Virus record (IMG/VR): IMGVR_UViG_3300031998_000008
Location: 143,930-207,929 of that record
DNA: 64,000 bases
Source: a virus
Taxonomy: Duplodnaviria; Caudoviricetes
Strand: one strand, 5' to 3'
The notes beneath the pieces were generated by a model. It was given only the letters and a program-made list of their open reading frames with translations. It was not told where the DNA came from and searched no databases. Position numbers and translations under genes: made by a program. Shown here piece by piece: positions 23,147-35,474 of this stretch (position 1 is the stretch's first letter; every line of letters starts with the position of its first letter).

Positions 23147-23217
23147 GGTTCATTGGGCCATCGGTTGGCCAGGCGTCTCTAAAACGCTAAAGAAGGGTTC
23201 GACTCCCTTATGAGCCG
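23147..23217 (+). tRNA. Amber suppressor tRNA, anticodon CTA
   Basis: Acceptor GGTTCAT/ATGAGCC, D stem GGCC/GGCC, anticodon GGCGT-CTCTAAA-ACGCT, T arm AAGGG-TTCGACT-CCCTT. Confidence 0.9.
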
Positions 23218-23247
23218 CTACCAATAAGATTAAACAAATACTATGAA

Positions 23248-26864: not shown

Positions 26865-26887
26865 CAAAGAAGTTCTTTGAAAAACAT

Positions 26888-27023
26888 TGAAGCGTGGTGA
26901 AATGGTAGACACGGCGGTAGTAAACAAAACGCTTACAGTGTATGTAAGTTAACAGCAGTTGGTATTACGTTTCAGGTAGAACCGCTGCCAGTGGCGTTGG
27001 AGGTTCGAATCCTTCCGCTTCAA
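26888..27023 (+). tRNA. tRNA-Leu-type gene with ACAGCA-module insert in the anticodon arm (anticodon uncertain, CAG or TAG)
   Basis: Leu D arm GTGAAATGGTAGACAC, long variable arm, GCGGT/ACCGC stem around a ~60 nt insert with GCTTACA/TGTAAGT-TAACAGCAG. Confidence 0.7.
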
Positions 27024-27075
27024 CAAAAAAGTTTGGCACGATTTTTGATATAGTGCTTATGTTCTTTGAAATTAT

Positions 27076-29105: not shown

Positions 29106-29233
29106 GCTGGAATCGTCTAATGGATTAGGACACGTAGCAAACAAAATGATTTCAGTCGGAAATGAAATTTAACAGCAGAATTTAGCAATGAAATTCCAAT
29201 TCCGAAATGGGGGTTCGAATCCCTCTTCCAGCT
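29106..29233 (+). tRNA. tRNA-Gly(TCC) with 55-nt ACAGCA-module insert (29135-29189)
   Basis: Removing the insert gives CGGAA-ATTCCAA-TTCCG; acceptor GCTGGAA/TTCCAGC-T. Confidence 0.8.
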
Positions 29234-29235
29234 CT

Positions 29236-29361
29236 TGCAAGTTGGTGTAGTGGCAGCACACGTAGCGACTAATTAGATTTCAGACATGGAATTAGACAGC
29301 AATATTTAAAATGCGATGAAACCATAATTCCGTGACAGAGGTTCGATTCCTCTACTTGCAA
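29236..29361 (+). tRNA. tRNA-Met/Ile2(CAT) with 55-nt ACAGCA-module insert (29263-29317)
   Basis: Removing the insert gives CGGAA-ACCATAA-TTCCG. Confidence 0.78.
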
Positions 29362-29373
29362 CTATTTAAGATT

Positions 29374-29495
29374 TGGGATGTGGTGTAACGGTAGCACACG
29401 TAGCACTTTATGATTTCAGACACGGAATTTTACAGCAATTATTTTAGCGATGAATTTGGGTTTCCGTGGTTTTGGTTCGACTCCAGACGTCCCGA
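29374..29495 (+). tRNA. tRNA-Pro(TGG) with 51-nt ACAGCA-module insert (29401-29451)
   Basis: Removing the insert gives CGGAA-TTTGGGT-TTCCG. Confidence 0.8.
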
Positions 29496-29517
29496 CATGT
29501 TTTTCAGGTTAAGGTAA

Positions 29518-30116: not shown

Positions 30117-30686
30117 ATGAAAAAGAATTTTAGAACAAAAGAAGAATATATTGAGGCTGCAAAGATGGCTCATAGTGTTGCTGAAATGTGCAGATTACTT
30201 GGTAGAAATCCATGTGGCGCTGGATATTATATTATGAAAAAGAAAATCAAAGAATATGATATAGATATAAGTCATTTTCTTGGGCAAGGATGGAATAAGG
30301 GTTTAAAGATGAACCCTAATGAGGGAAAAATTAAAAAATTAGAAGAAATATTAGTAGAAAATTCCACATATGCTAATTGTAATTGTTTAAAAAAAAGGTT
30401 ATTAAAAGAAGGTGTTAAAGAATATAGGTGTGAGTGTTGTGGGTTGACTGAGTGGAACGGTAAAGAAATTCCTTTAGAAATACATCACATAAATGGTGTT
30501 AGAAATGATAACAGGATTGAAAATCTTCAATTATTATGCCCAAATTGCCATGCTCAAACAGATAATTATTGTTCTAAAAATATGAAGAATGGCGGAGTGG
30601 TGGAATTGGTAGACACGACTGTCCCAAAAGCAGTTGCCGAGAGGCGTGTGGGTCCGACTCCCACCTCCGCTACAGAACTTAAATAA
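30117..30686 (+). CDS. HNH homing endonuclease
   Basis: CECCG..EWNG..LEIHHING..NDNRIENLQLLCPNCH. Confidence 0.9.
   Translation: MKKNFRTKEEYIEAAKMAHSVAEMCRLLGRNPCGAGYYIMKKKIKEYDIDISHFLGQGWNKGLKMNPNEGKIKKLEEILVENSTYANCNCLKKRLLKEGVKEYRCECCGLTEWNGKEIPLEIHHINGVRNDNRIENLQLLCPNCHAQTDNYCSKNMKNGGVVELVDTTVPKAVAERRVGPTPTSATELK
30591..30672 (+). tRNA. tRNA-Leu(CAA), C33, T loop TCCGA; lies inside the HNH ORF 3' end
   Basis: ACTGT-CCCAAAA-GCAGT; Leu D and variable arms. Confidence 0.85.
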
Positions 30687-30704: not shown

Positions 30705-31340
30705 ATGAAGAAAGTATTTATTTTATTGATGGCAATTTCTTTGATGTTTTCATTCAATTCTTGCGATTGGTTTAACAAGAACAAGGATAATGAGAAAAAA
30801 GAAATTATCGTGGAAAACGTAGTTAAAGCAGACAGAGACTACATGACAGAAAATTATGGTAATACCTACGTATGGTATGAAACACAAATTTCTTTGAATG
30901 ACTATCTTGATGAAGAATGCGATGGCTCATTCTCAGAGATTGTAGATGTGTTCCAAGTTATCACTACAACTGACAGTGTAACATTTGATACCAAAGTAAT
31001 TAAGATGTACCATGTTGCTGATTCTTCATACATTGAAGAAATTGAAGGTTTCTGGGTTGAAGACATGAATATGAACGATGAAATCATTTCAGTCACTTAC
31101 AAACAAGCATTCCAACTTATTAATGAAGTAAACTTCCCAAAACCACATTCAAAGAATTGTGTTTTGAGAAAAGAAGTTGGCCCAATTGAAGCTAATCCTC
31201 AGTATATCTTTGGCAACATTGAATCACAATTGTATGTTGATGCATTGACAGGTGATGTAACTGATGAAAGCCCAAGTTTCTGTGACGAAGTTATTGAAAA
31301 CGACAGCATCGAAGATGTAAACACTCAATTTGGTGAGTAG
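30705..31340 (+). CDS. Putative lipoprotein
   Basis: MKK + hydrophobic stretch + FNSC lipobox; acidic mature part. Confidence 0.75.
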   Translation: MKKVFILLMAISLMFSFNSCDWFNKNKDNEKKEIIVENVVKADRDYMTENYGNTYVWYETQISLNDYLDEECDGSFSEIVDVFQVITTTDSVTFDTKVIKMYHVADSSYIEEIEGFWVEDMNMNDEIISVTYKQAFQLINEVNFPKPHSKNCVLRKEVGPIEANPQYIFGNIESQLYVDALTGDVTDESPSFCDEVIENDSIEDVNTQFGE

Positions 31341-31372: not shown

Positions 31373-31439
31373 GAAAACCTAACAGCAACTTTTAGTAATA
31401 ATCAGGACTTTCATTCCCGACAATAAACTAATGGTTTTC
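31373..31439 (+). ncRNA. ACAGCA-stem RNA displaying a Glu(TTC) anticodon arm
   Basis: GAAAACC-TAACAGCAA ... CAGGA-CTTTCAT-TCCCG ... GGTTTTC. Confidence 0.7.
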
Positions 31440-31458: not shown

Positions 31459-31529
31459 AGTAATCCTACAGCAACATTTCAACAAAACCTTTGATTGCAA
31501 TTCAAAACCATGTTAACAAACGGATTACT
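31459..31529 (+). ncRNA. ACAGCA-stem RNA displaying a Cys(GCA) anticodon arm
   Basis: AGTAATCC-TACAGCAA ... TTTGA-TTGCAAT-TCAAA ... GGATTACT. Confidence 0.75.
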
Positions 31530-31535
31530 GTAAAT

Positions 31536-32192: not shown

Positions 32193-32283
32193 AGGAAACT
32201 TGCAGCAAATTTAATTAGGTTCAATAAATTTAACTTCCAATTAGATTTTAGATGGTTCGAGTCCATTACAAACAAGGTTTCCT
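32193..32283 (+). ncRNA. GCAGCA-stem RNA with Gly(TCC) anticodon arm and T arm
   Basis: AGGAAACTT-GCAGCAA ... TTTAA-CTTCCAA-TTAGA ... GATGG-TTCGAGT-CCATT ... AGGTTTCCT. Confidence 0.75.
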
Positions 32284-32368: not shown

Positions 32369-32511
32369 AGTAAGCTTGCAGCAATAATTCAGTTTATTTT
32401 CGCAGATACCGAAGAGATGTCGGTTCGATTCCGGCCCCCCATACAAATTTAACTTTCTTATCATATGGGGGTAGTTTAATGGTAGAATATTACAAACAAC
32501 AAAGGCTTACT
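32369..32511 (+). ncRNA. Circularly permuted tRNA mimic (GAT loop) on a GCAGCA stem
   Basis: Order: stem, anticodon arm, T arm, CCCCCAT, linker, ATGGGGG, D arm, stem (AGTAAGCT/GGCTTACT). Confidence 0.8.
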
Positions 32512-32527
32512 GTCAATACAAAGCAAA

Positions 32528-32620
32528 AGAAATCTTACAGCAAATATCAACTTGATTAGTTCGATTCTAATATTAGCCGCCATAAACAGGCTGATTGCAA
32601 AGGTGCAGTTAATGATTTCT
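32528..32620 (+). ncRNA. Permuted tRNA mimic (T arm, closed acceptor, D-like arm; no anticodon) on an ACAGCA stem
   Basis: AGAAATC/GATTTCT; ATTAG-TTCGATT-CTAAT; ATTAGCC-GCCA..GGCTGAT; TGCA/TGCA. Confidence 0.75.
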
Positions 32621-32635
32621 GAATGCTTTTTTTAT

Positions 32636-32709
32636 AGGGGTATGGTTGAATTGGTTACAAGTACCGGCCTGTCACGCCGGTGGTGCGGGTTCGAGTCCCG
32701 TTATCCCTG
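32636..32709 (+). tRNA. tRNA-Asp(GTC)
   Basis: CCGGC-CTGTCAC-GCCGG. Confidence 0.92.
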
Positions 32710-32719
32710 CAATAGATAA

Positions 32720-32849
32720 AGGAATTCAACAGCAACTTTTAATTTCGTTTGACTGTAAATCAAAAGGTTATTGGTTCGAATCCAGTTGTTGCATTAGAGA
32801 AATCGAAGGCGACATAGCTCAATTGGTAGAGTAAGAAAAAGTGATTCCT
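32720..32849 (+). ncRNA. Circularly permuted tRNA-Tyr(GTA) mimic on an ACAGCA stem
   Basis: AGGAATT/GATTCCT; TTTGA-CTGTAAA-TCAAA; T arm; TGTTGC..GCGACA; TAGCTCAATTGGTAGAGT. Confidence 0.82.
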
Positions 32850-32866
32850 GTGCATCTATTTTTTAT

Positions 32867-32940
32867 GGGCCTGTGGTTGAATGGTTTACAATGCCGCCCT
32901 GTCACGGCGTGTGGTGCGGGTTCGAATCCCGTCAGGCCCG
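32867..32940 (+). tRNA. tRNA-Asp(GTC)
   Basis: CGCC-CTGTCAC-GGCG. Confidence 0.9.
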
Positions 32941-32951
32941 CATAGATTGAA

Positions 32952-33106
32952 AGAAATTTAACAGCAAGAGACTTTATGGTAAACACATTTCTCTGCAAAA
33001 GAAAGATTGTTGGTTCGAGTCCAACTGTAGCATTGAAGACGGAGCCCTCATTTAGCGAGGTGCGAGTTTTTGGCTGCATAGTGAAATTGGAAAAAGAATG
33101 ATTTCT
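32952..33106 (+). ncRNA. Circularly permuted tRNA-Cys(GCA) mimic on an ACAGCA stem (break in the D loop)
   Basis: AGAAATT/GATTTCT; TGGTAAACAC; TTTCT-CTGCAAA-AGAAA; T arm; TGTAGC..GCTGCA-TAGTG. Confidence 0.8.
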
Positions 33107-33310: not shown

Positions 33311-33661
33311 TCGGATGTTGTTGATATTCAAAGAAAAGTCCGTAAGACGAGGGTTCGACTCCCTCCGGGTCCACCATATTGGGTGCGCCATGTTGAGTAC
33401 CAACCATACTAGTTATACGGTTCTTATGATTCATGGTACAATACCAAGTAATTTGAAAAACTTGGTTCGGGTTTAAAATTGGGGTTCAACTCCCTGGCAT
33501 CCAACAACTTTCAAACATGGGCCCGCTTGGATTTGATTGCGAATGAATACAATGGAAGGAGATATTCGAGAAGCCAATAAATGGCAATGAAAATTATGCA
33601 TATGCAGTTGCAGCCTAAGCTAGGTTAGCAAATGCAGGTTGGCAGCGAACCAAATCGCTGC
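33311..33661 (+). ncRNA. ssrA: Two-piece (circularly permuted) tmRNA
   Basis: Acceptor piece ends T arm-CGGGTCC-ACCA at 33376; coding piece starts GGGCCCG..GGATTTGA at 33519 (G3:U70); tag GNENYAYAVAA-stop at 33583-33618. Confidence 0.88.
33380..33504 (+). ncRNA. tRNA-like element in the tmRNA intervening segment
   Basis: TGGGTGC/GCATCCA-A, TGGGG-TTCAACT-CCCTG, ACCAAGT/ACTTGGT hairpin. Confidence 0.55.
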
Positions 33662-34608: not shown

Positions 34609-34735
34609 GGAGGTATAGTTTAGTGGTAGAATGACGTAAAATGAAAATAGCATTTTGGTCATTTAAAAATGTTAACAGCATATGAGTTCAATGCCTTTCC
34701 CGCCGTTGATGTAGGTTCGATTCCTGCTGCCTCCG
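34609..34735 (+). tRNA. tRNA (TTC, Glu) with 56-nt ACAGCA-module insert (34637-34692)
   Basis: Removing the insert gives ACGGC-CTTTCCC-GCCGT. Confidence 0.75.
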
Positions 34736-34889: not shown

Positions 34890-35021
34890 TGGCCAGTAGC
34901 TCAGTTGGCAGAGCAACGGAATGAAAAGAAAACGCATTTTGGCCTAAAGATGTTAACAGCAATGAAAAATTTTCGACTGTTAATCCGTGGGCCGCAGGTT
35001 CGAGTCCTGCCTGACCAGCCA
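34890..35021 (+). tRNA. tRNA-Asn(GTT) with 56-nt ACAGCA-module insert (34920-34975)
   Basis: Removing the insert gives ACGGA-CTGTTAA-TCCGT; encoded GCCA end. Confidence 0.82.
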
Positions 35022-35131: not shown

Positions 35132-35207
35132 GCATGTATGAAGCAGATTGGATGTGCTACCAGCGTGATAAGGCTGGGCTATGTTGGTTCGAATCCAACT
35201 GCATGCG
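35132..35207 (+). tRNA. Atypical tRNA-Ile(GAT)-like, 8-nt anticodon loop
   Basis: CCAGC-GTGATAAG-GCTGG; GCATGTA/TGCATGC. Confidence 0.55.
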
Positions 35208-35248
35208 CAAATTACCTGAACACATAGGGTGATTTATCTGTACAGATT

Positions 35249-35407: not shown

Positions 35408-35474
35408 GGAAAACATACAGCAACTTTAATTCAGTTACAATCTTTTAAATTGTGGGACTAAAATTTCGTTTTCC
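35408..35474 (+). ncRNA. ACAGCA-stem RNA displaying a Lys(TTT) anticodon arm
   Basis: GGAAAAC-ATACAGCAA ... ACAAT-CTTTTAA-ATTGT ... GTTTTCC. Confidence 0.78.

Follow-up and report, generated by a model that had tools for sequence, protein, structure and literature searches.

The 64,000-nucleotide (nt) stretch analyzed here, referred to as the window, comprises bases 143930-207929 of the 207,929-base IMG/VR virus record IMGVR_UViG_3300031998_000008 (CheckV completeness 56%) and contains, within a phage array of transfer RNA (tRNA) genes, four tRNA-like elements of circularly permuted order, named E1 to E4. On balance, these four elements seem to be Y-RNA-like tRNA mimics that are YrlA-like in topology and stand outside the YrlA family; they are most likely partner RNAs, an undescribed cousin of the bacterial Y RNAs, and not ordinary tRNA genes. 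YrlA RNAs show the order T arm, acceptor, D arm, and Y RNAs are encoded beside Ro60 (Chen et al. 2014, PMC4201824). Each of the four phage elements is enclosed by a stem of 6-8 base pairs (bp) that joins its two ends, and the 5' strand of this stem is followed by the motif (U)UACAGCAA. This module of stem and motif, referred to as the ACAGCAA handle, marks at least 14 RNAs of the tRNA array, shows compensatory changes in related phages and is found in other phages beside a gene for a protein that is predicted to adopt the Ro60 fold.

The order of parts in E1 to E4, read and checked by coordinate, is (anticodon arm), T arm, acceptor 3' strand, linker, acceptor 5' strand and D arm (Table 1). In E1, E3 and E4, a 7-nt strand directly after the T stem pairs with a second 7-nt strand across a linker of 14-39 nt. 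The D arm begins two bases after the acceptor 5' strand in E1 and E3, and in E4 only the 5' half of the D arm is located there. The acceptor of E1 contains seven Watson-Crick pairs out of seven; its anticodon loop CAGATAC presents GAT and has A33 in place of the expected U33, which is also missing in the orthologue of E4 in the related phage L012. E2 possesses a 7-bp acceptor including one G-U pair, with a G+CCA that comes directly after the 3' strand. E3 shows the canonical loop CUGUAAA of a tRNA-Tyr(GTA) and an acceptor with 6/7 pairs, compared to 7/7 in its L012 orthologue. E4 shows the loop CUGCAAA of a tRNA-Cys(GCA), and its 39-nt linker contains a hairpin of its own. The discriminator is A in E1 (GAT) and in the L012 orthologue of E3; in E3 and E4 of this phage position 72 is unpaired and the register of the discriminator is ambiguous.

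When the halves were re-joined, full-length tRNA-Ile(GAT), tRNA-Tyr(GTA) and tRNA-Cys(GCA) were called by ARAGORN from E1, E3 and E4, respectively, E2 being excepted as it has no anticodon arm. Non-cognate joins stayed uncalled in five of six cases, the exception being the paralogue pair E3 and E4, and with shuffled 5' halves a full-length tRNA was called no more than 4, 7 and 10 times in 300 trials. On the native array sequence none of E1 to E4 was called by ARAGORN, and the Rfam tRNA model yielded just partial, mis-paired matches of 31.6 bits for E3 and 28.6 bits for E4. An earlier note on this DNA, made from the sequence alone, had claimed the permuted order with loop-closed acceptor stems, the lack of an anticodon arm in E2 together with a linker beginning GCCA, the break inside the D loop of E4 and the anticodons GAT, GTA (Tyr) and GCA (Cys). 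All of this agrees with the base-by-base reading of the four elements and, for the anticodons, with the calls on the re-joined halves. Its expectation that standard tRNA finders miss the elements held as well, and the re-permutation in silico that it had proposed, performed here with ARAGORN, placed the cognate joins above the mismatched and shuffled background. What it overlooked are the enclosing stem with the ACAGCAA motif, the presence of the same module in six colinear tRNAs, and the relatives. The bodies of the elements are not recent copies of the normal isoacceptors of the array, the best identities being 67-72% to assorted tRNAs, and for the anticodons GAT, GTA and GCA the array has normal tRNAs as well.

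The 5' strand of the handle is purine-rich and is directly followed by TTACAGCAA, TTGCAGCAA or a close variant; handle RNAs start near AAG and end near CUGU. The cargo enclosed by the handle may be an anticodon arm alone, an anticodon arm with a T arm, or a permuted tRNA in full; in nearly all members it begins 9-15 nt past the motif. In six colinear tRNAs the handle occurs as a closed hairpin, forming an insert of 51-56 nt in the 5' strand of the anticodon stem (51-55 nt in the Gly, Met and Pro tRNAs). Deletion of the insert restores a 5-bp stem and a 7-nt loop in each of the six, and in the tRNA-Asn the arm without the insert is identical to that of the intact Asn gene. Counted over all fetched loci, a stem plus ACAGCA enclosing an anticodon or T arm is found 42 times on the (+) strand of the array versus 4 times on the - strand, and in this genome six of the seven stem plus ACAGCA matches fall within the tRNA array. 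RNAalifold returned no structure for nine inserts because the helix registers differ in their alignment; the support for the helices comes from direct reading. A pairing of the ACAG of the motif with CUGU anticodon loops was considered and dropped, being without covariation.

Table 1. Handle RNAs and further tRNA-like features of the array (positions are those of the window).
Feature	Position	Strand	Description and parts
E1	32369..32511	+	Handle-clamped permuted tRNA-like RNA, anticodon GAT; handle 5' strand 32369-32375, motif 32376-32384, anticodon arm 32398-32414, T arm 32419-32435, acceptor 3' strand 32436-32442, discriminator A 32443, 21-nt linker 32444-32464, acceptor 5' strand 32465-32471, D arm 32472-32489, A-rich linker 32490-32504, handle 3' strand 32505-32511
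E2	32528..32620	+	Handle around T arm, loop-closed acceptor and short D-like hairpin, without anticodon arm; handle 32528-32534 with 32614-32620, motif 32535-32543, T arm 32555-32571, acceptor 3' strand 32572-32578, G+CCA 32579-32582, acceptor 5' strand 32589-32595
E3	32720..32849	+	Handle-clamped complete permuted tRNA, anticodon GTA; handle 32720-32726 with 32843-32849, motif 32727-32735, anticodon arm 32748-32764, T arm 32770-32786, acceptor 32787-32793 with 32808-32814, D arm 32815-32833 (canonical)
E4	32952..33106	+	Handle-clamped permuted tRNA, anticodon GCA, break in D loop; handle 32952-32958 with 33100-33106, motif 32959-32967, D-loop 3' half and D-stem 3' strand 32978-32987, anticodon arm 32988-33004, T arm 33009-33025, acceptor 33026-33032 with 33072-33078, linker 33033-33071, D 5' half 33079-33090
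E0	32193..32283	+	Handle around anticodon arm and T arm only; anticodon TCC
E5	35408..35474	+	Handle around Lys(UUU)-type anticodon stem-loop only; conserved in L005, L001 and L012
Handle RNA, anticodon arm only	31373-31439	+	UUC-like loop
Handle RNA, anticodon arm only	31459-31530	+	GCA
Colinear tRNAs Gly TCC, Met CAT, Pro TGG	29107..29498 (~29107-29236, 29236-29360, 29376-29498)	+	Handle insert in each
Further colinear tRNAs	~26887-27024, 34609-34735, 34890-35018		Handle insert in each
Permuted (two-piece) tmRNA gene	33314-33618		Tag GNENYAYAVAA; Rfam tmRNA_permuted 63.4 bits
Orphan T-arm motifs	25118, 26379, 26565, 26651, 26843, 27411, 34413, 35186, 35381, 35761, 36414		

Related phages were reached through an open reading frame (ORF) of 211 amino acids (aa) in the array, and their relatedness to this phage is 98% (L005), 86% (L001), 57% (L012) and 56% (L009). 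L005 carries all four elements at 98-99% identity, with the anticodon of its E3 being GAA and not GTA. L001 retains E0 and E2, and E1, E3 and E4 are cleanly absent from it. In L012 and L009, E3 and/or E4 are found at syntenic places, E4 being syntenic in both. Compensatory double changes were observed in the acceptor (one in E2, two in E4), the T stem (two in E3), the anticodon stem (one in E4) and the handle (one each in E3 and E4), those of E3 in its L012 orthologue and those of E4 in its L012 and L009 orthologues; in L001, the E2 acceptor shows a compensatory replacement of G:C by A:U. While the stems covary, the linkers of orthologues are unrelated in sequence and length (6-39 nt). Selection acts on every helix, and since the helices are kept by compensatory changes across the relatives, these are real RNAs selected for the permuted tRNA fold and not debris.

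The frame of the anticodon loop stays canonical while the triplet changes, for E3 (GTA/GAA) and the family of the element at 31459 even between near-identical phages. The anticodon of E4 is GCA, GTG or ACA across orthologues, the family of the element at 31459 has GCA here and GTC, GTC and GAA in orthologues, and for the E0 orthologues in L005, L001, L009 and L012 it is GTA in three, compared to TCC in this phage. In more distant phages, independent permuted elements are encoded by L053, with a His element whose anticodon stem is divided between the two ends, by L025, with a Gln element whose anticodon stem is likewise split and whose acceptor loop measures 5-6 nt, and by L084, with an Asn element having 7/7 acceptor pairs. 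In L036 (13740-14030), two adjacent permuted tRNA-like elements with acceptor loops of 3-5 nt and canonical D arms were found; their closing helices of 7-8 bp are preceded by GGCTATT and not by ACAGCAA, and this may be a second type of handle.

IMG/VR was searched with a pattern consisting of the handle motif, 8-22 nt and an anticodon arm, which is biased towards Lys-like stems, and matches were found on at least 114 contigs. Among the matches listed, 80 loci were counted, and all following counts refer to these. The spacing from motif to arm shows a sharp peak at 10-11 nt, the closing stem is present at 67 loci, the anticodon arm is the sole cargo at 65, and two contain a full permuted tRNA. 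A tRNA lies within 2 kilobases (kb) of the handle at 60/80 loci, and Lys(UUU) is the commonest anticodon (28/80).

Clustering of the ORFs located within 5 kb of the handle revealed one dominant protein family, which is encoded at 26/80 loci and always on the strand of the RNA; at 21/80 loci its gene starts 49-977 nt downstream of the handle RNA on the same strand. In the complete relative G003 this gene spans the contig ends and lies directly upstream of the handle/tRNA array. The family, which has more than 1,200 homologues, contains the Pfam domains DUF2828 and DUF7788. In comparison with the phage TROVE/vWA family it reached an hhalign probability of 97.3%, and for its AlphaFold2 model (mean predicted local distance difference test score, pLDDT, 81.6) the 12 best Foldseek matches are all Ro60 structures, led by Ro60 of phage phiLo (9KOP, E 1.7e-9). 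As judged from this model, the DUF2828/DUF7788 family of other phages has the Ro60 fold, i.e., a HEAT-repeat ring with a vWA domain. The family profile was found in 15/18 handle-bearing records (12/13 of those at least 90% complete) versus 2/12 handle-negative records, in a table that is uncorrected for relatedness. A handle RNA beside a Ro60-like gene is the genomic signature of Y RNAs and Ro60, and for Ro60 of the Thermus phage phiLo it was shown that it binds RNAs consisting of a stem plus a motif (Yrl1/2; PMC12135203).

The Pfam TROVE model matched in 0/54 handle-bearing records and found nothing in this record, and the profile of the phage TROVE/vWA family had no match in G000-G004. To take the Pfam TROVE result as a refutation of a link to Ro60 was rejected, as the DUF2828/DUF7788 partner was found by clustering of neighbouring ORFs; the null result is misleading because the model is insensitive to the DUF2828/DUF7788 protein. 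A vWA protein of 230 aa that stands alone, with two tandem copies at G000:95433-96936, was also considered as partner and discarded, its occurrence in G000, G001, G003 and G029 being probably an effect of kinship; the 411-aa protein next to it resembles a glycosyltransferase. Two further huge phages encode a Pfam-detectable TROVE/vWA protein (L006:1033-2730 and G005:44075-45262; G023:130004-130333) of a family with more than 2,300 homologues, and one of these two also encodes RtcB. According to the handle model, these TROVE-positive phages are without ACAGCAA handles, and huge phages may harbour two Ro60-like lineages side by side that use different RNAs.

The elements are probably stable small RNAs belonging to one phage family whose members share a single conserved handle. 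This handle would clamp the ends of the RNA and, as suggested by the gene neighbourhood in other phages, dock a divergent Ro60-like ring, and the tRNA or anticodon arm carried by it would be a mimic displayed by the particle. Such a displayed cargo could attract or sequester factors recognising tRNAs or anticodon loops, or it could gate the ring. The neighbouring tRNAs would allow RNase P and 3' enzymes to free each element from the array transcript, and the colinear tRNAs with a hairpin insert would constitute an alternative way of attaching the same arm. The permuted order and the linker-closed acceptor would arise because the handle locks both ends, so that the tRNA body is attached via the D/anticodon junction; YrlA follows the same principle. 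This one explanation covers all cargo types, which a model of tRNA splicing, as set out below, cannot. Anticodons that switch, elements that come and go between close relatives, and anticodons already covered by normal tRNAs would point to a role in a tRNA-centred conflict between phage and host. The earlier note had left two outcomes side by side, i.e., unchargeable mimics or two-piece tRNAs opened at the linker by RNase P. The mimic outcome is better supported because most family members have an anticodon arm only and cannot become tRNAs, and because the handle travels with the Ro60-like protein; linker opening by RNase P is the lesser possibility.

Several findings weigh against a role as Y-RNA-like mimics. 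No Ro60-like gene was found in the 208 kb of this phage (56% complete) nor in the 82%-complete G001 by tblastn, by profile search or by hhalign against all ORFs of 300-900 aa (maximum probability 1.2%), the longer assemblies of the phage are absent from the best 120 matches to the Ro60-like family, and kinship may inflate the co-occurrence of handle and protein given above. Removal of the insert from the six colinear tRNAs rebuilds perfect anticodon arms, and the anticodon stem is split at the same site in the His element of L053 and the Gln element of L025, both as would be expected of a splice signal. Furthermore, the 7-bp acceptors, the discriminators and the encoded CCA of E2 look like parts meant for use, and the related G003 has genes for PNKP and a ligase-like protein. 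In the locus L071 (G003:42000-58000) of this complete phage genome, which has handle RNAs, a gene cluster encodes a DNA ligase, an RNA-ligase-like protein, a sigma-70 factor, a standalone vWA protein and a T4-type PNKP. An unlikely but serious alternative is therefore that the elements are true permuted tRNA genes, with the handle acting as a splice or ligation signal, i.e., as the phage counterpart of the bulge-helix-bulge (BHB) motif. Leader and trailer would be cut and the ends joined, resulting in a circular pre-tRNA from which the linker is removed by RNase P, 3' trimming and CCA addition; this route would yield normal tRNA-Ile, tRNA-Tyr and tRNA-Cys and would process the six colinear tRNAs, too. 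It is in line with the permuted genes sharing their module with the 51-56 nt inserts, whose deletion restores exact anticodon arms, with the D loop being split in the E4 family, with the near-constant start of the cargo past the motif, with the T4-type PNKP and ligase-like genes of G003 and with Gly(UCC) occurring among the called tRNAs of the array only in interrupted form. The pathway of Cyanidioschyzon merolae (PMC3978253) offers a precedent, and enigmatic tRNA introns were reported from Lak phages (PMC6784885). However, the anticodon-arm-only members, which are the majority, cannot give a tRNA, and the handle is encoded as a free-standing RNA ahead of Ro60-like genes. The distances between splice site and handle vary, the non-canonical loops (A33), the mismatched acceptor of E3 and the rapid switching of anticodons speak against this route as well, and no insert-free allele of Gly(UCC) was found in IMG/VR. 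RtcB, EndA, Rnl1, Rnl2 and PNKP were not found in this record, and the lack of these enzymes, which for EndA, RtcB and Rnl1 counts against splicing, is weak evidence because the record is only 56% complete. That the handle is a splice or ligation signal in addition to or in place of a docking arm, with a tRNA splicing or circular pre-tRNA pathway of neither group I nor BHB type operating in a bacterial host, is likewise unlikely and perhaps a little more so. Such a pathway would assemble working tRNAs from permuted and interrupted genes, possibly on the Ro60-like ring with PNKP and ligase.

Rather improbable are two-piece, chargeable tRNA-like RNAs, which would retain the handle, have their linker opened by RNase P and 3' nucleases and obtain CCA by addition or exposure, and in which acceptor stem and handle stem would hold the pieces together as in two-piece transfer-messenger RNA (tmRNA) and in YrlA of Mycobacterium smegmatis. 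A 7-bp acceptor stem is the main determinant for RNase P, and the acceptor stems of the elements measure 7 bp. In addition, E2 encodes G+CCA, the linkers are unconserved while the stems covary, a permuted tmRNA gene follows 200 nt downstream, and YrlA of M. smegmatis, which is cleaved by RNase P and receives CCA, provides a precedent (PMC4201824). Against this, the acceptor loops of the relatives L036 and L025 have only 3-6 nt, the first acceptor pair of E3 is mismatched, and the additional arm at the D/anticodon junction should impede decoding. The restored arms, the split stems, the genes of G003 and the lack of a Ro60-like ORF are the reasons why splicing and, at a lower level, the two-piece form are kept. 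A slim chance is given to decoys without a Ro60-like partner, e.g., sponges for host anticodon nucleases or tRNA-modifying enzymes, whose handle merely stabilises the ends. The lack of a Ro60-like gene in the record and in G001 would be explained, as would canonical loops with anticodons that switch between close relatives, the frequency of Lys(UUU) in IMG/VR and the presence or absence of E1, E3 and E4 between close relatives. However, a motif whose sequence is shared by phages and the dictyostelid Class I RNAs speaks for a specific binder, the adjacency to the Ro60-like gene elsewhere is strong, and the search pattern itself was biased towards Lys-like stems. Finally, it is very improbable that the elements are functionless remains left by tandem duplications and deletions among tRNA genes with introns. 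Tandem arrays of interrupted tRNAs do exist (29107-29498), and L001 lacks three of the elements at 86% relatedness. On the other side stand the compensatory changes in all helices across relatives of 56-57%, the synteny of E4 in L009 and L012, the boundaries located precisely at the handle in every copy and the independent examples in the unrelated phages L084, L053 and L025.

The array in which the elements are located extends on one strand from ~23.1 to 37.2 kb of the window and contains 34 tRNAs according to ARAGORN and the permuted tmRNA gene, which is situated directly after a tRNA-Val and is conserved in L001 and L012. About 15 T-arm motifs of the array lie outside any called tRNA (Table 1), suggesting that it contains additional odd tRNA-like genes; one example, at 35132-35208, has a 6-bp anticodon stem and matches weakly to the tRNA-Sec model. 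At the head of the array (23147-23218), a tRNA with CUA anticodon is found, i.e., of amber suppressor type and named 'Pyl' by ARAGORN; the ORFs look intact in translation table 11 nonetheless. In L053 (9490-9623), a handle surrounds a tRNA-like RNA of normal order with a CUA anticodon. The 211-aa protein encoded inside the array (30705-31340) has an N-terminal helix and a beta-rich fold and 458 homologues in huge phages, without belonging to a known family, and an HNH endonuclease gene at 30117-30686 adjoins it. Its role as a tRNA enzyme was considered and discarded: the best match of its AlphaFold2 model (pLDDT 84.6) in the PDB is a putative lipoprotein (E 0.011), and the protein is also encoded outside tRNA arrays. 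A scan for sigma-70 promoters and terminators gave background level only, and the closest deposited phages have nothing in common with this phage beyond ordinary tRNAs.

If the elements are indeed Y-RNA-like mimics, Ro60/Y-RNA particles would have a second, unrecognised branch with a different RNA handle, which would be very common in large phages, as judged from the numbers of protein homologues and of viral contigs given above. This branch would display anticodon arms or whole rearranged tRNAs, and changes of the anticodon are expected for a weapon in a tRNA-centred conflict. The handle could also account for the 'enigmatic' inserts that interrupt tRNA genes in huge phages, and tRNA counts of huge phages would be wrong in both directions unless handle RNAs are modelled.

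Searches of the literature turned up no description of permuted tRNA genes or of ACAGCAA-handle RNAs in phages. The comparison with YrlA (RF02553), suggested by the earlier note, holds for the topology and not for membership in the family. As in YrlA, paired 5' and 3' ends stand next to a conserved single-stranded motif, the tRNA-like domain runs from the T arm through a closed acceptor to the D arm, RNase P could open the 7-bp acceptors of some members, and in other phages the handle RNA adjoins a gene for a protein of predicted Ro60 fold, which for the handle family as a whole holds at 21-23 of the 80 loci. In contrast, the motif is ACAGCAA here, and GNCGAA(N0-1)G of YrlA (PMC4201824) is absent from E0-E4. 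The Rfam scores are 24.8 and 23.1 bits versus a cut-off of 69, and the YrlA model found no match in seven related loci. The partner is a DUF2828/DUF7788 protein that is missed by Pfam TROVE and is not encoded beside the elements in this record. Furthermore, the phage RNAs possess a full anticodon arm, often as sole cargo, they lie within a tRNA array, and their handle is also an internal arm in colinear tRNAs.

Two-piece tmRNA is encoded by a permuted gene in which the T arm and acceptor 3' strand come first and the linker is removed at the acceptor. The E elements have the same permuted order; they lack an mRNA-like part and the G3:U70 pair, and the tmRNA lacks the ACAGCAA handle. Permuted tRNA genes are known from C. 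merolae, green algae and Thermofilum pendens (Soma 2014, PMC3978253). Here, too, the 3' half precedes the 5' half, an intervening sequence closes the acceptor, the junctions lie in the D loop or the anticodon region, and the flanking signal also occurs in colinear interrupted tRNA genes. The analogy drawn by the earlier note is valid for this topology and for nothing beyond it: by eye there is no BHB motif at the junctions, the splicing endonuclease (PF01974) is absent from the record, the host of the phage should be bacterial, and what flanks the genes is a Y-RNA-like handle that non-tRNA cargo carries, too. In Lak megaphages, 'enigmatic' tRNA introns were reported (Devoto et al. 2019, PMC6784885), which are likewise short and highly conserved, interrupt tRNA genes of huge phages and belong to no known intron class; neither permuted genes nor the handle were described there, and the likeness is one of description.

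Dictyostelid Class I RNAs (RF01414) are ~60 nt long, have a covarying 6-bp end stem and an 11-nt motif, start with AAG and end with CUGU, and their known binder is an RRM protein (Kjellin et al. 2021, PMC7919456). The phage RNAs resemble them in having a terminal stem of ~6 bp with covariation followed by an 11-nt motif (consensus CUUACAGCAA), in starting near AAG and ending near CUG(U), and in the size of their minimal members, ~60 nt, with a variable remainder. The Rfam Class I model aligns full-length to E2 (18.6 bits) and to the element at 31459 (15.6 bits), and the match includes terminal stem, CUUACAGCAA motif and CUG end. These scores are far below the cut-off of 41.5, and the RNAs differ in their origin from phage and not amoeba and in their tRNA-derived cargo. 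DUF2828 (PF11443) is mentioned in the literature only in papers on eukaryotes (plants, a tardigrade). Because stem, motif and termini are the same, the phage handle would be linked to the orphan Class I RNAs of social amoebae, with DUF2828 as candidate partner family, and by analogy a DUF2828 protein could be the partner of the dictyostelid Class I RNAs.

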